35,650 nt of DNA, from NCBI GenBank assembly GCA_010405405.1, contig MU004234.1, positions 726,993 through 762,642 on the forward strand. Reading direction: 5' to 3'. Position numbers and translations under genes: made by a program. Within the stretch, counting starts at the first letter, position 1, and each line of letters opens with the position of its first letter. The DNA is from Microthyrium microscopicum (taxonomy: Eukaryota). This document shows positions 8,633 to 35,650 of the stretch, in pieces. The notes beneath the pieces were generated by a model, which was not told the DNA's origin, did not search any database, and saw only the letters and a program-made list of their open reading frames with translations.

Positions 8633-9386
8633 TCATGATTCATCCAATTCTTCGTCCTCATCAGACTTTTCCTCTTCATCAGACTTTTCCTCTTCATCAG
8701 ACTCTTCCTCTTCATCAGACTCTTCCTCTTCATCAGATTCCTCGATTTCATCGAAGCCTTTTTCTTCCTCGCTGTCTGTAAATGGATCCATGGCACCCCA
8801 ATATACCCTCTTGAGCAAATTATTATCGTGCTCCCAGAAATACCTAGCGAAAATTAGCATAACACTCTTACAGAATAAGATAGCAAATGGATTAGGTCAC
8901 GTACTTTGTTTCTCGGATTGGTGTTCGATCTTTGCAGTCAAGGCAAGTCTCAACAAGATGATCCTTACGATCTAGCCACGCGAGGAAGTCTGTTTGAAAC
9001 TGGCTGTACCAAGCAATCTGGCGGGACAAAGGTCCGTCATAGTCATGTCGGTGATAGTCCCATCCTCGACCCTTCCGGCATACCTCTACGACTCTGAAGC
9101 AAGTAGCCTTCCGGTACGATTCGCAGCCACAGCAGTAGAGGACTTTTAGACGGTGCAGAGAGTGAGTGCCACCCTTAGTCAGAAATCGCAGGTAAGCTAG
9201 ATCCGGAAAGGTGCCATCTTCGATCAGAAAGTCGGTGTTGGTCGGAGCGACAATGATGACGTGGTATGCTTTGGAGACTGTGCGAAGGGAAAGCTTGTCC
9301 ATGGCGCCAAGGTACTGGATGATATCGAGTTTGAGCTCATTGGGAATTCCTTGGAGCGAAGCGCGGGGAGGGACGTGAGCGGCCAT
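8633..9386 (-). CDS. F-box + CxxC/CxxC zinc-binding protein, array copy A, with acidic repeat tail; 230 aa from ATG 9386, or 239 aa from ATT 9469
   Basis: F-box ASLQGIPNELKLDIIQYLGAMDKLSLRTVSK; YCCGCESYR..F and ETCLDC. Intron 8904-8844 (GTACGT..GCTAAT..TAG) joins to YFWEHDNNLLKR...EESD repeats. Upstream intron 9458-9403. Confidence 0.85.
8658..8737 (-). repeat. 18-bp coding tandem repeat, about 4.4 copies, encoding (EEE[EK]SD)n
   Basis: Plus-strand unit TCATCAGACTYTTCCTCT starts at 8658, 8676, 8694 and 8712, with a partial copy at 8730. Confidence 0.9.
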
Positions 9387-9879: not shown

Positions 9880-10559
9880 CTAGGTAGGTACGACATATAC
9901 GTGCCGGACCCGAAACTCTTCCAACAATCCCTCAAAATCCACAAGCCAAATGTAACTACGAGTACGAATTAGCACAAACCCTATAAACTCAAAAGTGTAA
10001 AGGCCAACAGACACCTCTGCCTTAAGAACATCTGAAAGTTCGCAATCAATACAGGTCTCCAGACGCCAATGTTTGTGGCGTCTCCACTTCCCTAAGTCTT
10101 GGTTGAAATGGAAGCTCACGTTCCGCGAGACGGCGGATTCGATACCACTATACCAGTGCTCTGGCTGTGCAGCGTACGAAGAATGCCGCTCAATATTTTG
10201 GGACATTCGACCCATTCTGAAATTCTTGATCTTGCGATATTTTCGACATTCAGCGCAGTGAAGAACTGGGATGTTCTGGAATCGACGGTTGCGAACGAGG
10301 TCATCATTTGCCGGGAGATCGGTGATAAGGGTGTGGTAATCTTTGGAAAGAGCATGAAGAGCCAGTTTTCCTAGTGGGTCCAGGTGCTTCACTATCTCAA
10401 GCTTCAGCTCTGCCGGAATACCTTGGAGAGAAGCGCAGGGAGGTAGTGGGAGTGGTGGACGAGTGGCCATGTTGGGTGCTGGAGCTCTATAATGATTCAT
10501 GTTAGAGCTGTTAATGACTTGAGAAGCTAAAGAAAAGGATATACTCACAGCTCTGCCAT
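9880..10559 (-). CDS. F-box + CxxC/CxxC zinc-binding protein, array copy B, about 186 aa
   Basis: Leader exon ATG GCA GAG CT (10559-10549) and intron 10548-10487. F-box ASLQGIPAELKLEIVKHLDPLGKLALHALSK; HCAECRKYR..F and ETCIDC. Probable 57-nt in-frame intron 10012-9956 (weak donor GTCTGT) before YIW; TAG 9882-9880. Confidence 0.8.
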
Positions 10560-10640: not shown

Positions 10641-11199
10641 CTGTCCAAAAATCCAAGTGGGAAAACTTTGACGTCAGCCTAATTTGGGAAAGTGCCGGGT
10701 GTGATTGAGGACCCGAGTATTTGGGAAGGAGCAGAACAGGACAAATGACATGACCCATTACAGAAGCCGACTGAGCTCTGACGTGTTTTTCCTTCCGAAT
10801 GTGAGGACTGTGGAAGAGGAAGAGCGATCAAAGCTAGCAATCGCTTAGAATTTTGATATATCGTCGGGTTGAAGCCTCTGGGTTAGCTAGTGTTGTGTTC
10901 GGATCGAAGAGAAGTAGCACACTCTTGGCCTAGCAATGTGAAATTATTCGAAACCTAAGCCGGATAGGTTTGATGGTCGGGAGATGTTCGTGGCTGTTGA
11001 TATGAGCTAAGCTGAGAGAAACCACATACACTTATCACATTCATCGAACGCAATGATATCTTTAATTCCCATTAGCTATGGTATCCCGTCTTTTGTGAAT
11101 ATAAGAGCAGGCCAGAGCAACACAAGGAATCCGGAGCGAGAGCAGCAGAGAGCAGCCAGTGCCTCAAGTATAGCTAGCATCTCACCTCTTTTCTTCCTC

Positions 11200-11810
11200 T
11201 CAGTCATCCTCTGTTTCATGATTTGTAGCCTGATCGATGTCCCATTTCTCGTAGAAGTCTGGCCGCCAATTTTTCTTCTTCAGCAAAGCCATTAGTGGGC
11301 CCAGGGGCTGTTGCCAAAGGTATCTAAAAGGTCTGAAAATCAGTACAGGAACAACTTGGAGTGGCTGAGTTGATGTGTAAAGACTTACCGATCTTGCTAA
11401 AGCTGACAGTCAGTACAAAGCTCGAGGCGAAAGTCCTTGCGCCGCCGCCATCGCAGCATGGCAGAAATCCACCAACACCAGAACTTGTTATCCTGGTTAA
11501 TCTCATCGTCATTCCGCGGGCAACGACGTTGAAGAGCCTGTACTTCTAGGTACAGTTTTGAGATATCAAAATGATGGGCAGCGCGGTACGTTCCACAAGA
11601 AGCGCAACGGATGACTTTGAGCATATCGACGTAACATTTGTCGGCTAGTTCGTCATTTGTCAACGGCTCGATGATGTTGTAGTAATGCTTGGAGACAGTT
11701 CTTAGAGTAAGTCTTGCGTATGGACCAAGGTACTTTACGATCTCGAGCTTAAGTTCGTCTGTTATTCCTTGGAGAGAAGCGCGTGGTGGAAGTGGAAAAG
11801 GGGTAGACAT
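11200..11810 (-). CDS. F-box + CxxC/CxxC zinc-binding protein, array copy C, with an in-frame premature TAG (137 aa truncated, 181 aa if recoded); pseudogene or recoded gene
   Basis: F-box ASLQGITDELKLEIVKYLGPYARLTLRTVSK; RCASCGTYR..F and ELCTDC. TAG at 11399-11397, then CAA GAT CG|GTAAGT intron 11388-11324 and an intact exon YLWQQPLGPLMALLKKKNW...ETEDD-TGA (11202-11200). Confidence 0.8.
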
Positions 11811-11969
11811 TGTGCTTGCTGAGGGCTGCAACGATATTAGAATCGTTGAGAAGTTCTGGGCCAAAGCGATGGAAGTACTTAAGGCTTTGCCATCGCAAGT
11901 TGAAGCTCAAGTCGCAGGGTGTTGTGACAGTGGTGAAGGAGAGTTGAGCATGAGGTGGCAGGAGAATGG

Positions 11970-11976
11970 TTTTATA
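11970..11976 (-). promoter_or_regulatory. TATA box of F-box copy C
   Basis: TATAAAA on the minus strand, 83 nt upstream of the homologous leader ATG 11893. Confidence 0.6.
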
Positions 11977-12480
11977 CACCTTAAAAGTACCGAATGAGTC
12001 CGACAGGTGACAAAATCTCCGGATTATTATTGCAACCTGATCATTGCAGGGGGCAGCCGCCTGGCTTTGAGAAATGGCATGATGGCAATAGTGCAGAGGT
12101 GCTGCATGACCGGGAAAGGGAGACTACGGCATGCCTCTGTGTCAATTTAGTCCTGGCCCACGACTGAGTCCACATAGAGCATGCCTATCAGCTAACAGGT
12201 AGTCAAGCCTAACACTGTATGCCTTTCTTCGAAACTTGAGTACTGCGAAAGGGCAAAAAGGCATAAGATTTTGGAACAGCGTTCAAGACGTTCATCGAAT
12301 GATGGTATTGATTCATACCTTCGATCCGGTGTGTGAAGTTGGAATATCGTACCAAAAGAATTCAGAGATTGGATGTATAGAAAGGCGCCAACCAATTCAT
12401 TCAAGTACGGATTAAGATTCTGTTATATATCGCTGTTCATATGGTGGCCGTGGCCTTTGACACCTCGTCATCTCAATCGA

Positions 12481-13169
12481 TCATACAGTACACTTGGGAA
12501 CAACACCCAGCTTTCTGCGAGGACCGATATCTCCAATACCGCTCCAATTCTCATGGAATAGTTCCATGACCTGCACGAACTTCATGTCCCAGATGTAGCT
12601 TCAAACCAAGTCAGCAGATGTGCGAGAGAAACTACAGAGCTGAAGTGCGACTTACTCCTTGTCTTGCTTGCCATTCTCATCCTTGCAGTCACCACAAATC
12701 TCGTGAAGGTAGACTTGGTTTCTCCGCCATGAGTCCATATCTCTCTTGAGCTTGCCTGTAAACCATCGAGCGAACGGACTAGTTATTGCGCCAAGTCGAT
12801 GAAGCTTCTTAAAGTAAAGATCTTCGTTGACTCCCTTGACAATGTTGAACTCGCTGGGTGGTCGAAATCCTTTGCACTGCTCACAGTACAAGACCCGAAA
12901 TTTGTTGACCGGGATTTTGGGGACAAAGTCGGAATTTGTTGGCTTTGGCAGAAAGCTGTACTCCAGACAACTTCCTCGGAGAGCAAGCTTGTCGAAAAGA
13001 CCGAGATATTGGACGATCTCTAATTTGAGCTCAACCGGTATCCCTTGGAGCGATGCTTTCGGCGGTGCGGCAAAACGAGCGTCGCTGCTGCCAGCTTGAG
13101 CGCTGTCACGATGTTAGCAATCCTGAAGTATATGGCTCAGAAAGAAGAAAATACTTACCGTTTCTCCAT
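12481..13169 (-). CDS. F-box + CxxC/CxxC zinc-binding protein, array copy D, 191 aa
   Basis: Leader exon ATG GAG AAA CG (13169-13159); introns 13158-13103 and 12655-12599, both GTAAGT..CTRAC..AG. F-box ASLQGIPVELKLEIVQYLGLFDKLALRGSC; YCEQCKGFR..F and EICGDC; last exon YIWDMKF...KCTV*. Confidence 0.85.
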
Positions 13170-30900: not shown

Positions 30901-33900
30901 TAAGCCTATGCTAAGGCATAGGTTGGGTAACCTATTAGGGTTGACCCAATATATATAGGTTCTTAGCATTAGGTTAGGTTTTAAAAATATTTTATAAAAC
31001 CTATACCTAACCTAAGTAAGATAAAATTATTATAGGTTAGACCTAAGGAACCTAAAGGACCTAAATTAGGAACCTATTAAATAAAGTTTATTTAGTATAT
31101 AACTTATTTAGGTTATAAAAAAAAGGTTACTATACCTAATATAGTTAGTAAAAGCTAAATAGGTAGAGATAATCTAGTATATAAATTAAAGAGTTAAAAA
31201 AGTATTAATTAAAATATTTAGTATAGTATATAGATTAAACTATATATTAACTAGCTACTATTACTAAAATCCTAATAACTAGTTTAAACCTTTTTCTTCT
31301 TACTAGCCTTATTAGAGACTATACTTATTAGTAGTTACTTTTACTTATTCTCTAATTCCTACTAAAAGGTAGACTTAAATATTAGTTTATAAACTCTTTT
31401 ATTAGTAGTTATTATAAGTAGAAACTTACTAATATCTTTTAGTAATTATCTATAAAAAAAGTCTTAAGTATTACTATCCTTTACCTTATTACTATTCTTA
31501 CTATTATCTAAATTTATACTATAGAATCTAGAAGAGGTCTTTAAGCCTATAGATTTACTAGTATTAGTACTCTTAAGGTTTTTTTCTTCTTTAGTAAACT
31601 TAAAATTAGTATTATTTTTATTATTAAAACTATCTTTACTAGCTTTATTTATGTTCTTATTTAAAATATTATTATCCTTACTTAAATTATTTAAATTATC
31701 TTCTCTATTAGAAATAATAAGTAACCTATCTAAATCTTTATAATAAGTTATATAATTAAATATTTAATAGTATATAGTATTAAGATTACTAAAATGAATA
31801 TAATTAAGTAGGGTATTTATAAGTTATTTTATAATTATATTAATATATTTTTTATATATACTAACCTCTACTTTAATCTTATTAAAATTACCTTAATAGT
31901 CTAAAATATTAGCTATTAATTTAGTAAACTTATTATTATTATATTAATAGAGTATATCTTATAATAGTATAAGGTTATAAAATATCTAAGAAAAGTAAAG
32001 ATAATTATATTTAGATTAGTTATAAATAATAGAAAAGATATATTCTACTCTAACTTTAGTAGCTAATATATAAAAATAATTACGTGCTATATAAGCTATT
32101 ATTAAATAAAGGTCTAGATTATTATTTTCTTTCTATATAAGAAGAGAATTATTATTCTTTATAAATACTATTATTATATTAGTAAATTATAAATAATATA
32201 ATAATAAAGATATACTACTTTTAAAGTATTATATAAACTTATTAAATAAAGATAAGCTAGTTAGGCTATTATCTACTATAATATTATTATTATCTATAAT
32301 TAGTTCTATATTATTAAATTAAGTATTTAAATTACTATACTTCTTAAGCTAAACTTTATAAAGATCTTTAATTATTACGTTACGTTAAAATAAACTATTT
32401 AAATTAGAGTAATCTTTCTACTAAGAATTAGTAAAGATAGACTTAGCTATATAAGGAGATAATAATTAACTAAAAGTATAAATACGTTATAGTTAAATAT
32501 TAATTTATATTAAGTTAAAATATACTTATAGTTTTCTTTAAGCTTCTTTTAGACTAGACTAAAGTTTACTCTACTAATATAGTTAAGTACTTACTAGTAT
32601 ATATTTACTTAGAATAGCCTCTTTATTATTAATATATTAAAAGAGCTTTTAGAAGTATAAAAGGACTTTATAAATAGATAAAGCCTTAAATTTATTAAGA
32701 ATCTAAATTATAGCGTTAAATAGAGTAGTAAACTAAACTAAATACTTAATATTAGCCTATTCTATATTAAATAGTATAAGAATCCTTACCTATTACTAAT
32801 CTTTCTTTTTTCTAGCTTTATAAGCTTTAGTAATAAAAAAGTATATAAGAAGCATCTTAATAATTTAAAAGTAAAGTCTTATTATTATTATTAAGTCTTA
32901 GCGTATTTTAATATCTTAGATTAGCTAAAAGTTACTATAAGAATTAAGATTATTCTAGTATTTATTAATAAAGTATAGATTAGATATTTAGAATTTATTA
33001 GAATAAAAACTAGCTAAGTAAGTAAGAAACCTAAAAAGATATAGTTTAGAAGAGCTAATATACTTAGTAATACTATAAGCCTAAATTATATTAGCTATTC
33101 TAATTAATACTTTTTTAACTTACTAAAAATAAGAACTAACTTATCTTATATAAAATAAGAATAACTAAGCTATATTTTATAATAAGTTTCTTCTCTTTTA
33201 AAATATCTTCTTTAATAAATACTTATTTAATTTCTTTATCTATAGACTTATAGCTAAGATAAGAAAGTAAAGCGCCTTATACTAGTTAAATAATATAAGA
33301 TATATAAAGAACTTAAATAATACTTATAATACGCTTAAAGTATTAATATATATTTAATATAGATATTATTATTTTATTATTACTAGCATTATTAACTATA
33401 ATAAAGCAAACTTTCTTAGTAATACTATATTAATTAAATATATTACTTATAAGTTTAGTATAAGCCTTATCTATAGACTTTCTAATAGTAGAAAAAAAGC
33501 TAAGAAGCTTCTCCTTTTATTCTTACTATAAAGTAATCTATTATCTAATAATAGCTAAGTACTCTTTATAAGTAAAATTTAAAGACTACCTATCTAGCTA
33601 AATACTAATATATATATTATTACCTAGCTAAATAAACTTCTCTCTTAACTTTATAAGATTAATTATAACTTATCTTATAACTTTTAAAGTAATAGTTTTC
33701 TATAAAGTAAATTAAGGTTAAATACCTAATAGTATATAGTAATTAATAACTTACTATATAAATTATAATTTAAATATACTAAGAGGAAGACCCTTAGCTA
33801 TAATTAAACGCGTTTATAAAATAAGAAAATTTTATAGTATAATCTTATACTTATTAAAGCTATAAGTAGCCTTAAGCTTTACGTTATATATCTATAAATA

Positions 33901-34620
33901 TTATAATTAATAATAATATAGTATAGTAGAAATTAAATATACTAGAGTTATAGTTAATCTTATTTAATTAAGTATAATCTAATTTTTATTACCTTTAGCT
34001 ATAGTAATATTATTATAATCTTAGAAAGTAATATACTTATTAAGTAATCTTTATTTAATAAGAGAGGTACTAGTATTATCTTTATAAAGATGATAATATT
34101 TAAGGAACTTATAATAATAAATATAGTAATAATAAGACTAGCTAGTAGACTTAAAGGCACCTACTTATATACTATTTTAAATAGGGCTTTTTTTCTTATT
34201 ATATTAATAAAAATCTATTTATATAGGAATTAGCCTTTCTTAGTTAATAGTAAACTAAGATATAATTTACTACTAAGTCTAGAAATAGTTATTAGTATCC
34301 TTACTCTATAAATATACCTTTTTTTCTTAATTACTAGATTCTTTTAATACCCTAAGTATTATACTAAAAATAAAAGAGATAGATACTAGTAGGCTAAAAG
34401 ATAATATACTAATAGGAAAGTTTAAGATAGTACTATTAGTAATAGTATCCTTATCTTAAATAGTAGGTTATAATAATAAAAAGGAAGTTATTAAGCTAGT
34501 TTTAAATATAAAGGAATTAGAAATAGAAGTAAAAAAAGATATAATTTAAAGTAGCGTTAACTTTATTAAAAAAACCTAAGGTTCTAAAGGAATAAAATTA
34601 GTAAGTTAAAAAAGTATTAA
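30901..34620 (-). mobile_element. RIP-mutated hAT-superfamily DNA transposon; right boundary approximate
   Basis: Short GGTTRGGT/ACCYAACC subterminal-type motifs at 30920-31080. hAT transposase motifs are recoverable on the minus strand after reversing RIP changes. A similar ACCTAAGGTTCT motif occurs near 34575. Confidence 0.75.
31990..33610 (-). pseudogene. hAT transposase relic: catalytic core and C-terminal dimerisation domain
   Basis: The minus strand reads ISI*LDR*S (LDGWS, 33597-33586), YLAIIR**IT, KEKLLSF, KVCFIIVNNASNN (DNASNN, 33393-33376) and *KE...IARNYFYILATKVRVEYIFS (W..MARDY.IPAT.VGVERIFS, about 32135-32031). The substitutions needed to restore these motifs are C>T or G>A. Confidence 0.82.
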
Positions 34621-35650
34621 TTAAAAATTTAGTATTATTTATATTATCTTATAATATTATTTATAAAAACTTCTATTTATTCTTCCTCTCCTTTTAATAT
34701 TAATTAATTATACTCTATATTCTAATTATCTACTTCTTAATTATACTAATTTAACTAATCTAATAATTTAGAAGATAACTAATATAACGTATTTCTCTTT
34801 TTAACCTCTTATATTACTATGCTATTAAACTCTTTCTTAATCTATTATATTTTTTAGCTCTCCTTAGAACTACTTAGCTTAGTCTTCTTTCTTTAAAAGT
34901 AATTCTATAAACTAGAGATTTATAAAGTTATTCTTTTATATAATCTATACTTAGTCTAATTATTACTAGTAGTTAGCTATTTTATTTTTCTTAACTAGTA
35001 TATTTACTAAAAAGTAATACTAGTTCTACCTAGGTAGTTATAATATATTATATAAGATATGCTAAATCTAAAAATTATTTCTATAATTAACTTTATTATA
35101 CTACTTAATATAATATTTAAACTTTAAAGTAAGAATATCCTAATAGCTTATTAATCTCTATACTTAATTTAAAAAGATAATATACTAATTAACCTCTATT
35201 ATATTTTCCTTATTATAGTAATAAAAAATGCTATCTAAATTAATCTACTTATATCTTTATATCTAAATAATAATTAAATAGTAGAGAATATTTTAGTCTA
35301 AAAATAATTATAAGGCTAGAAATAAGTAACTAAGGTACTTCTTACTTTAATTATTTTTAGTTATAAAGATTATACTACTAGAAAAAATTATAACTATTAT
35401 TAATAGCTATTTAAAGAGTATTATTACTAAAGTACCTACTAAAAAATAATAATTAGCTATTTATAAATTATATAACGCTTTTATATAGAAAGTTTTAGAA
35501 CTATAGTCTTAAAGAGTAAATAAGTATAGATATTAATAGTAGGAAGTATAAGTAGTATTATTATTATTATAGTAATTTAAGTTTATACTATTTATACTAA
35601 CTAGAAATATTTATAATAAATTCTTTAAAGTTTATTATATAAAAGTATAT

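Follow-up and report, generated by a model that had tools for sequence, protein, structure and literature searches.

An in-frame TAG before the last exon of a tandem F-box paralog of Microthyrium microscopicum: a stop more likely ordinary than programmed, in a genome with signs of stop-codon editing

Copy C, one of a four-gene tandem F-box cluster in Microthyrium microscopicum, carries an in-frame TAG immediately ahead of its last intron and an open, paralog-like last exon. This stop is more likely ordinary than programmed: on balance we read it as a nonsense change that arose recently, in a tandem paralog that is drifting. A clearly less probable reading, though a serious rival because of signs in genes elsewhere in the genome, is that the UAG is a conditional stop that A-to-I editing would turn into UIG, read as Trp. 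All probabilities worded below are judgements and were not computed.

Results

Copy C, its transcript and its reading frame

By the window we mean the whole stretch of 35,650 nucleotides that was analysed. Re-reading it bore out the minus-strand sequence given by the first-pass annotation, TGT CAG CTT TAG CAA GAT CG followed by the donor GTAAGT. The features of copy C are the following:

11397..11399, minus strand: in-frame TAG, with the A at 11398 and the context TTAGCAA; used as an acceptor in public model P0001
11400..11810, minus strand: short ORF of 137 aa with the F-box and two CxxC pairs; ATG at 11810
11389..11396, minus strand: the eight bases between the TAG and the donor, CAAGATCG
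11333..11388, minus strand: last intron, 56 nt, GT-AG; spliced in contig X5, and in the 3' UTR of the short form
11324..11325, minus strand: ancestral acceptor AG, homologous to that of the paralogs; skipped in X5
11200..11332, minus strand: last exon, PFR and then YLW...EDD, in frame past the TAG; TGA at 11202-11200
11667..11762, minus strand: F-box motif, residues 17-48 (Pfam)
11595..11606, minus strand: first CxxC (C69, C72), invariant across the four paralogs
11406..11417, minus strand: second CxxC (C132, C135), invariant across the four paralogs
11879..11893, minus strand: ancestral start (ATG GCA AAG CCT TAA), today an upstream ORF of four codons, alignable to the first coding exon of B and D
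11877..11882, minus strand: dead intron-1 donor TTAAGT; GTGAGT in B and GTAAGT in D

The F-box of copy C scores 22.3 bits against PF00646, above the Pfam cut-off of 20.5. Contigs from four public runs were compared with window positions 10900-12200. Two DNA contig sets from one sample, possibly the source of the window itself (X3 and X4), showed zero differences to it. A single 7,290-nt contig from another study (X5), of unstated tissue and taken as RNA by guess and from the one spliced joint in it, crosses 10900-12200 with no differing letter and one joint, where 56 nt with the ends CT..AC on the plus strand are missing; it is unbroken from 11389 to 12200, so that intron 1 is kept, with no joint there. 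The fourth (X6) spans only 166 bases (11631-11796), away from the stop. These public contigs show that the TAG is real, that copy C is transcribed, and that the intron behind the stop is spliced, with its acceptor at 11333. Sequencing error at the TAG, for which the first-pass annotation had advised a check, was ruled out, the same letters being present in the two DNA contig sets and in X5.

The splice alters the gene model. Of the phase-2 intron earlier placed at 11388-11324 the donor stands, but the acceptor does not, X5 splicing 11388-11333; the short ORF of 137 aa was correctly given, whereas the long form would have 184 aa and not 181, because of the X5 acceptor. The junction predicted for the long form was 9 nt off: read-through gives CQL, the stop and then QDRPFRYLW, and the corrected junction peptide is ...DRPFRYLWQQPLGPL, with W at the stop. 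The description of the last exon, open for 40 codons with YLW and an acidic end (...EDD) up to the TGA at 11202-11200, was accurate. A stop close before the last junction does not trigger junction-dependent decay, and as the copy C stop lies 8 nt before the junction, such decay of its mRNA should not be expected.

Public model P0001 (149 aa) evades the stop by taking the TAG as an acceptor, with another C-terminus as the result. It could be rebuilt exactly from exons 11810-11477, 11396-11389 and 11323 onward, and X5 contradicts both junction choices. The stop is thus hidden in an invented intron, and public gene models tend to hide premature edited stops in this way. That the TAG truly doubles as the acceptor of an intron at 11476-11397, used at a low level or in certain stages only, whose removal would take out the stop as in P0001, seems to us very unlikely: the exact match of P0001 to these exons, a CTGAC branch-like motif at 11413 and the pairing, in FgBUD14, of editing with splicing of a stop-holding intron (PMC11156358, in part) speak for it, but X5 is unbroken from 11389 to 12200 and uses acceptor 11333, and the intron would remove the second CxxC, invariant in the four copies, and put the last exon out of its ancestral frame.

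At 11398, X5 has an unedited A; as a single spliced contig of unstated tissue, and of a kind from which minor variants are lost, it is no test of sexual-stage editing. No edited or read-through product of copy C was found in the public contigs, of which X5 is the one that is spliced.

Comparison with the paralogs

The other three members of the cluster, 37-41% identical to copy C over the main exon, are these:

8633..9386, minus strand: paralog A, intact, with a long acidic tail; last intron 8904-8844
9880..10559, minus strand: paralog B, intact, public model P0216 (186 aa); last intron 10012-9956
12481..13169, minus strand: paralog D, intact, public model P0215 (191 aa); last intron 12655-12599

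In all three, a phase-2 intron is followed by one base and then Y-x-W, and the public models of B and D agree. The claim that the intron of copy C lies at the place of that in the paralogs holds for a homologous phase-2 intron but not for the exact donor position: from the last Cys to the donor there are nine codons plus 2 nt in A, B and D, and five plus 2 nt in C. The shifted acceptor adds three codons to copy C, leaving a linker of 9 residues versus 10 in the paralogs. The third codon past the last Cys is TAG in C, TCA in B, GAG in D and CGA in A; with the alignment anchored on the donor, D has AAG at the stop position, and no paralog has TGG or Trp there. B and D begin in a short first exon, the intron-1 donor being dead in C only, so that the ancestral ATG of copy C now opens the four-codon upstream ORF. 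Since paralog A also begins at the downstream ATG, loss of the first exon need not mean decay.

The last exon of copy C is free of stops and frameshifts, still shares its Y-x-W and helix pattern with B and D, and has a coding score of 0.065 per codon against -0.086 for exon 1, under a weak model. An open run of at least 46 codons after a stop is not rare, being found in 57 of 394 off-frame controls. It is homology beyond chance which shows that the exon was once coding; present coding does not follow from it. In the structure model of paralog D (mean pLDDT 66.6), values lie mostly at 70-90 over the F-box and Cys region and the model is for the most part confident to residue 150, while the last exon falls below 50, with an alignment nearly without depth there. 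A fold search with paralog D gave no match at E 0.001 or better, and only weak F-box matches among solved structures.

No ortholog of copy C was found outside the species by word search (5 candidates, only P0001) or among the 27 proteins of a profile search with the family, the best four of which come from this genome; a metagenome search confirmed 0 of 150 stretches. Ascomycete F-box proteins with a CxxC-x-R-L-R...F...CxxC region likewise have an F-box and then paired CxxC motifs, and the Atlas clusters matched at 0.94-0.95 consist throughout of ascomycete F-box proteins; compared with these, the Y-x-W last exon is restricted to the present cluster. A distant fifth paralog lies on the same contig (L006:1490-1870). 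Its public model ends four residues past the second CxxC, at a TAA that overlaps a phase-2 GTAAGT donor. The last intron of paralog B (window 9956-10012) is 57 nt long, with GTCTGT as a weak donor; as no stop lies in its frame, its retention would add 19 residues.

Context, fold and mutation at the stop

Editing context was scored by the base preferences of Fusarium graminearum from -2 to +4 (PMC9600606, in part). By these Fusarium preferences, applied here to a Dothideomycete, TTAGCAA at the copy C stop has 5 of the 6 preferred bases; contexts of at least 5/6 also occur at 15 of 62 ordinary TAG gene ends. Among the 81 possible nonsense changes in copy C, 36 give TAG and 7 give TAG in a context this good. 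The local fold reaches -8.0 to -8.8 kcal/mol (z +1.0), and 169 of 200 shuffles fold as well. No stable hairpin loop was found at A 11398, which sits in an interior loop or at a stem edge and is unpaired at 0.56-0.69; a hairpin loop at the edited A is a preference, not a requirement (PMC9600606, in part).

Exon 1 of copy C has a TpA/ApT ratio of 0.92, the highest of the four copies (0.52-0.65 in the others), and RIP-type mutation is, judging from base composition and repeats, active in this genome. Window positions 31100-35650 form an AT-rich block (GC 0.18, TpA/ApT 1.58) with a strong RIP-type dinucleotide signature. Repeats on four contigs (L007, L008, L011 and L012) are heavily C-to-T/G-to-A mutated and hold about 105-125 bases of the paralog B F-box region, a gene fragment captured by a repeat.

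UAG followed by CAA is the start of a leaky context. Low but useful ribosomal read-through of UAG-CAA, without any editing, could draw on the CAA directly after the copy C stop; we consider it improbable, as the next codons, CAA GAT, do not fit CAR-YYA and no cross-species conservation shows selection.

Host class and the reported range of mRNA editing

By the label of matching proteins, M. microscopicum is listed under Dothideomycetes, outside the Sordariomycetes and the Pyronema lineage in which editing is shown. The reported range of mRNA editing covers the Sordariomycetes and Pyronema and leaves out Aspergillus nidulans and Botrytis, other classes being open (PMC11156358, in part), and our literature search found no report for Dothideomycetes. 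The earlier doubt as to whether the fungal class is one that edits was therefore well placed. Feng et al. call for lineages that have a duplicated Ame1 to be tested (PMC11087585, in part).

Premature stops elsewhere in the genome

The main candidate outside the cluster is an AMA1-like gene (L115; G000:C7:1976886-1980962, plus strand), in which 342 open codons are followed by an in-frame TAG at L115:1027-1029 and then by an in-frame continuation to an intact WD40 domain. It is the third Cdc20-family gene and is called AMA1-like by elimination against the CDH1- and CDC20-like genes. All 17 homologous metagenome loci (among 80 fetched of at least 119) have TGG at the TAG codon; the search pattern allowed only TGG or TAG there and left out homologs with a diverged motif. 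Over this segment L115 is 48% identical to the homologs, versus 59% among the homologs themselves, and its stop context has 3 of the 6 preferred bases. At about L115:1452-1500, directly ahead of the WD40 domain, lies an intron of the rare AT-AC type (ATAAGT...CTAC) that is common to 12 of the 17 homologs, four having no intron there. FgAMA1 is a premature-stop-correction (PSC) gene, PSC33, in which stops arose six times independently at one site; its stop is edited up to 63%, and another gene of that set, PSC47, is an F-box gene (PMC10776026, in part). The likeness of L115 to FgAMA1 is at gene level. Qi et al. describe single species from other classes that carry premature stops at PSC sites (PMC10776026, in part), and the L115 stop may already be among those charted.

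Two further single TAGs, each with a long coding-like frame behind it, were observed in 836 kb of sampled sequence. An orphan disordered gene (L057:1473-4046, minus strand; stop at 2328-2330) has 572 codons, the TAG and 284 more codons; its DWA-stop echoes an upstream DWAW, with 6/6 preferred bases. ADA1/HFI1 (L036:910-2241, plus strand) ends in a TAG (1642-1644) that lies in a predicted hairpin loop, and the frame stays open behind it for 198 codons, which include an acidic stretch; this gene is about 6 kb from an OTT_1508 deaminase gene.

Open tails behind gene ends were sampled in 80 stretches of 10 kb, 60 of them evenly spaced and 20 targeted, and in the window (836 kb, about 2% of the genome). 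Tails of at least 46 codons followed 11/62 TAG, 8/62 TAA and 7/73 TGA ends (11/62 versus 15/135; Fisher P = 0.15). A rank test for TAG tails gave P = 0.077, and P = 0.043 on the evenly spaced stretches alone; with some 2% of the genome sampled, the test is low in power. An earlier, stricter filter kept 89 ends and lost ADA1. Coding-like flanks were seen at 16 stops (7 TAA, 7 TAG, 2 TGA), 14 of which were dropped by eye as intronic, antisense or in multi-stop frames.

No premature stop was present over the stretches read of the RID-like genes, SPO11 and SPO22, and DBF2 of this genome ends in TAA. In 19 regions from 128 kinase matches and in 6 WD40 regions, stops were all intronic or gene ends (L248 excepted); as these regions held none further, premature stops are not common noise in this assembly. 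Four genes with a DNA-methyltransferase domain were seen (L110, L111, L112 and L119), at least two of them RID-like in layout.

Candidate editing machinery

Among eight deaminase matches there are two intact TAD3-like genes (L024, C5:1209622; L025, C3:2068316) and one TAD2-like gene. The TAD3-like genes are 40% and 58% identical over two pieces, the C3 copy being longer and diverged. Three DUF726 genes were found, L026 on C7 and the neighbours L027 and L028 on C1, two of them Ame1-like. The protein of L026 (P0002) has the spacing of FgAme1 S531, D589 and H629, and carries L505-V506 at the probable Ame1 interface site, where K occupies 505 in 136 of 213 relatives; the second Ame1-like copy (L028) has RT at the site and Gly replacing the catalytic Ser. 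A KN-to-MV change at the interface of Ame1 with Tad3 is the step that enabled editing (PMC11087585, in part). The LV of P0002 would correspond to this MV site, the column having been mapped without a Sordariomycete Ame1 proper: the Sordariomycete matches retrieved in the region search belong to the other Ame1 paralog only, with NQ or SQ at the site, and the distance from the site to the catalytic Ser is 30 versus 31 in PMC11087585 (in part), so that the mapping needs a one-residue offset. As L or M stands in this column in 18 of the 213 relatives, P0002 included, the L is not peculiar to this species. No solved structure resembling P0002 was found, and a joint prediction of it with the N-terminal part of canonical Tad3, for which Tad3 was split into two pieces and no alignments were supplied, scored 0.00, which is evidence neither way.

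Five OTT_1508-type deaminases (L013-L017) lie on contigs C4, C7, C14 and C15, the window being on C5, and four of the five matches show an HxE...CxxC motif in the frame read. A crude scan of about 20 kb around each (frames of at least 200 codons, C2H2 pattern) found no C2H2 gene beside them.

Discussion

Several observations favour a nonsense change in copy C: (i) the paralogs have no Trp at the site, (ii) the first donor is lost, (iii) the context is a common one, and neither the F-box nor the CxxC pairs are missing from the 137-aa form, (iv) X5 is unedited and there is no stable hairpin, (v) RIP-type mutation is active in the genome, with TpA/ApT highest in exon 1 of copy C, and (vi) model confidence over the last exon of D is low, and the literature search found no mRNA editing reported in the host class. 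Two of these are weak tests, the missing Trp and the unedited X5, because the codon from which an edited premature stop derives is often not Trp, and transcription of many such genes is not limited to the sexual stage (PMC10776026, in part). Against a nonsense change stand the intact, paralog-like last exon with its coding-like score, the shifted acceptor, which leaves the frame intact (a 1 in 3 chance) and nearly restores the linker length, the fact that only 7 of 81 possible changes give TAG in such a context, and the several signs of stop-codon editing in the genome.

On the nonsense reading, copy C would have taken a fairly recent hit three codons past its last conserved cysteine. Its transcription and the splicing of its last intron, both seen in the public contigs, would persist, with the intron now in the 3' UTR, and the predicted 137-aa product would hold the F-box and four cysteines without the Y-x-W helix and tail. 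That the last exon is still open would then reflect the short time elapsed and not any use in translation. The dead first donor with its upstream ORF, the four lost codons and the shifted acceptor would reflect relaxed selection beside three intact paralogs.

Under the editing reading, which we hold possible but doubtful, every step is conjectural: a sexual-stage Tad2-Tad3-Ame1-like complex, or an OTT_1508 deaminase acting under stress, would edit the UAG and give a 184-aa form, other stages making the 137-aa form. The AMA1-like gene, with its TAG at an invariant Trp and an intact WD40 domain, is in keeping with it, as are the two TAD3-like genes, the LV of P0002 and the five OTT_1508 deaminases, the single TAGs within long coding-like frames of L057 and ADA1, and, at copy C itself, the 5/6 context and the A unpaired at 0.56-0.69. 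Weighing against it, RID-like genes, SPO11 and SPO22 show no such stop over the stretches read, and the stop codon of DBF2 is TAA; TAG ends have no significant excess of long tails (P = 0.15); the AMA1-like TAG is read from the assembly, has 3/6 preferred bases and could be a strain mutation; the LV-to-MV mapping of P0002 is indirect, with L or M there in 17 other relatives; no C2H2 gene was found beside the five OTT deaminases in frames of at least 200 codons; and a genome that edits could still leave the copy C stop alone. The idea of stage-controlled editing in the first-pass annotation has thus gained from the AMA1-like TAG, the two TAD3 genes and the P0002 pair, all outside the window, and lost in that nothing edited was seen and the site itself leans to nonsense. 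The alternative set beside it, a nonsense mutation, is retained, but not as equally possible: it is now ahead. That stop-restoring editing occurs somewhere in this genome we regard as slightly favoured; given such editing, copy C as an edited target is perhaps an even bet, lowered by the second lesion and the lack of a hairpin.

Among known systems, the premature-stop-correction (PSC) pseudogenes of F. graminearum come closest: there too a single in-frame TAG precedes an intact homologous coding part, with U at -1, G at +1 and an unedited transcript present, and an F-box gene (PSC47) is among the 71 (PMC10776026, in part). There, however, editing was measured, and the stops arose in Sordariomycetes and are mostly conserved (PMC10776026, in part), while copy C is a single member of a lineage-specific cluster in a Dothideomycete, known from DNA and one unedited contig. 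The spore killers Neurospora rfk-1 and Fusarium Skc1 likewise combine short and long products, an early UAG, a later stop and a small fast-evolving gene (bioRxiv 10.1101/2020.12.30.424869, in part); copy C shows no sign of drive or toxicity, and its extension is an ancestral exon, shared with the paralogs, behind an intron. Stop-loss editing of FgDBF2 also has a UAG and then a short in-frame extension, but at a normal gene end in a conserved hairpin (PMC13123824, in part), whereas the copy C stop is premature and folds no better than shuffles. OTT_1508-type deaminases are shared with the OLD-ZAO antiviral stop correction (PMC12754623, in part), from which copy C differs in that no OTT deaminase is near the cluster, it is not a C2H2 factor and no C2H2 gene was found adjacent to the deaminases.

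Taken together, a separately evolved Dothideomycete system of stop-restoring A-to-I editing might be proposed, with a duplicated Tad3, an Ame1 with a convergent hydrophobic pair, and the AMA1-like gene, L057, ADA1 and copy C as targets, copy C switching between 137 and 184 aa and its tail being substrate-binding or regulatory. We put this forward tentatively, as an unlikely whole.

Should the copy C stop be an ordinary mutation, what is gained is a corrected gene model and a further F-box paralog in decay; an edited stop would mark mRNA editing in a fungal class without reported cases. The best single target in the genome for a test of editing is the AMA1-like gene L115. With a candidate machinery that includes two TAD3 genes, and with exact sites at 11398, at L115:1027-1029, in L057 and in ADA1, the copy C stop has brought up a case for mRNA editing beyond the classes in which it is known, and one that can be tested.
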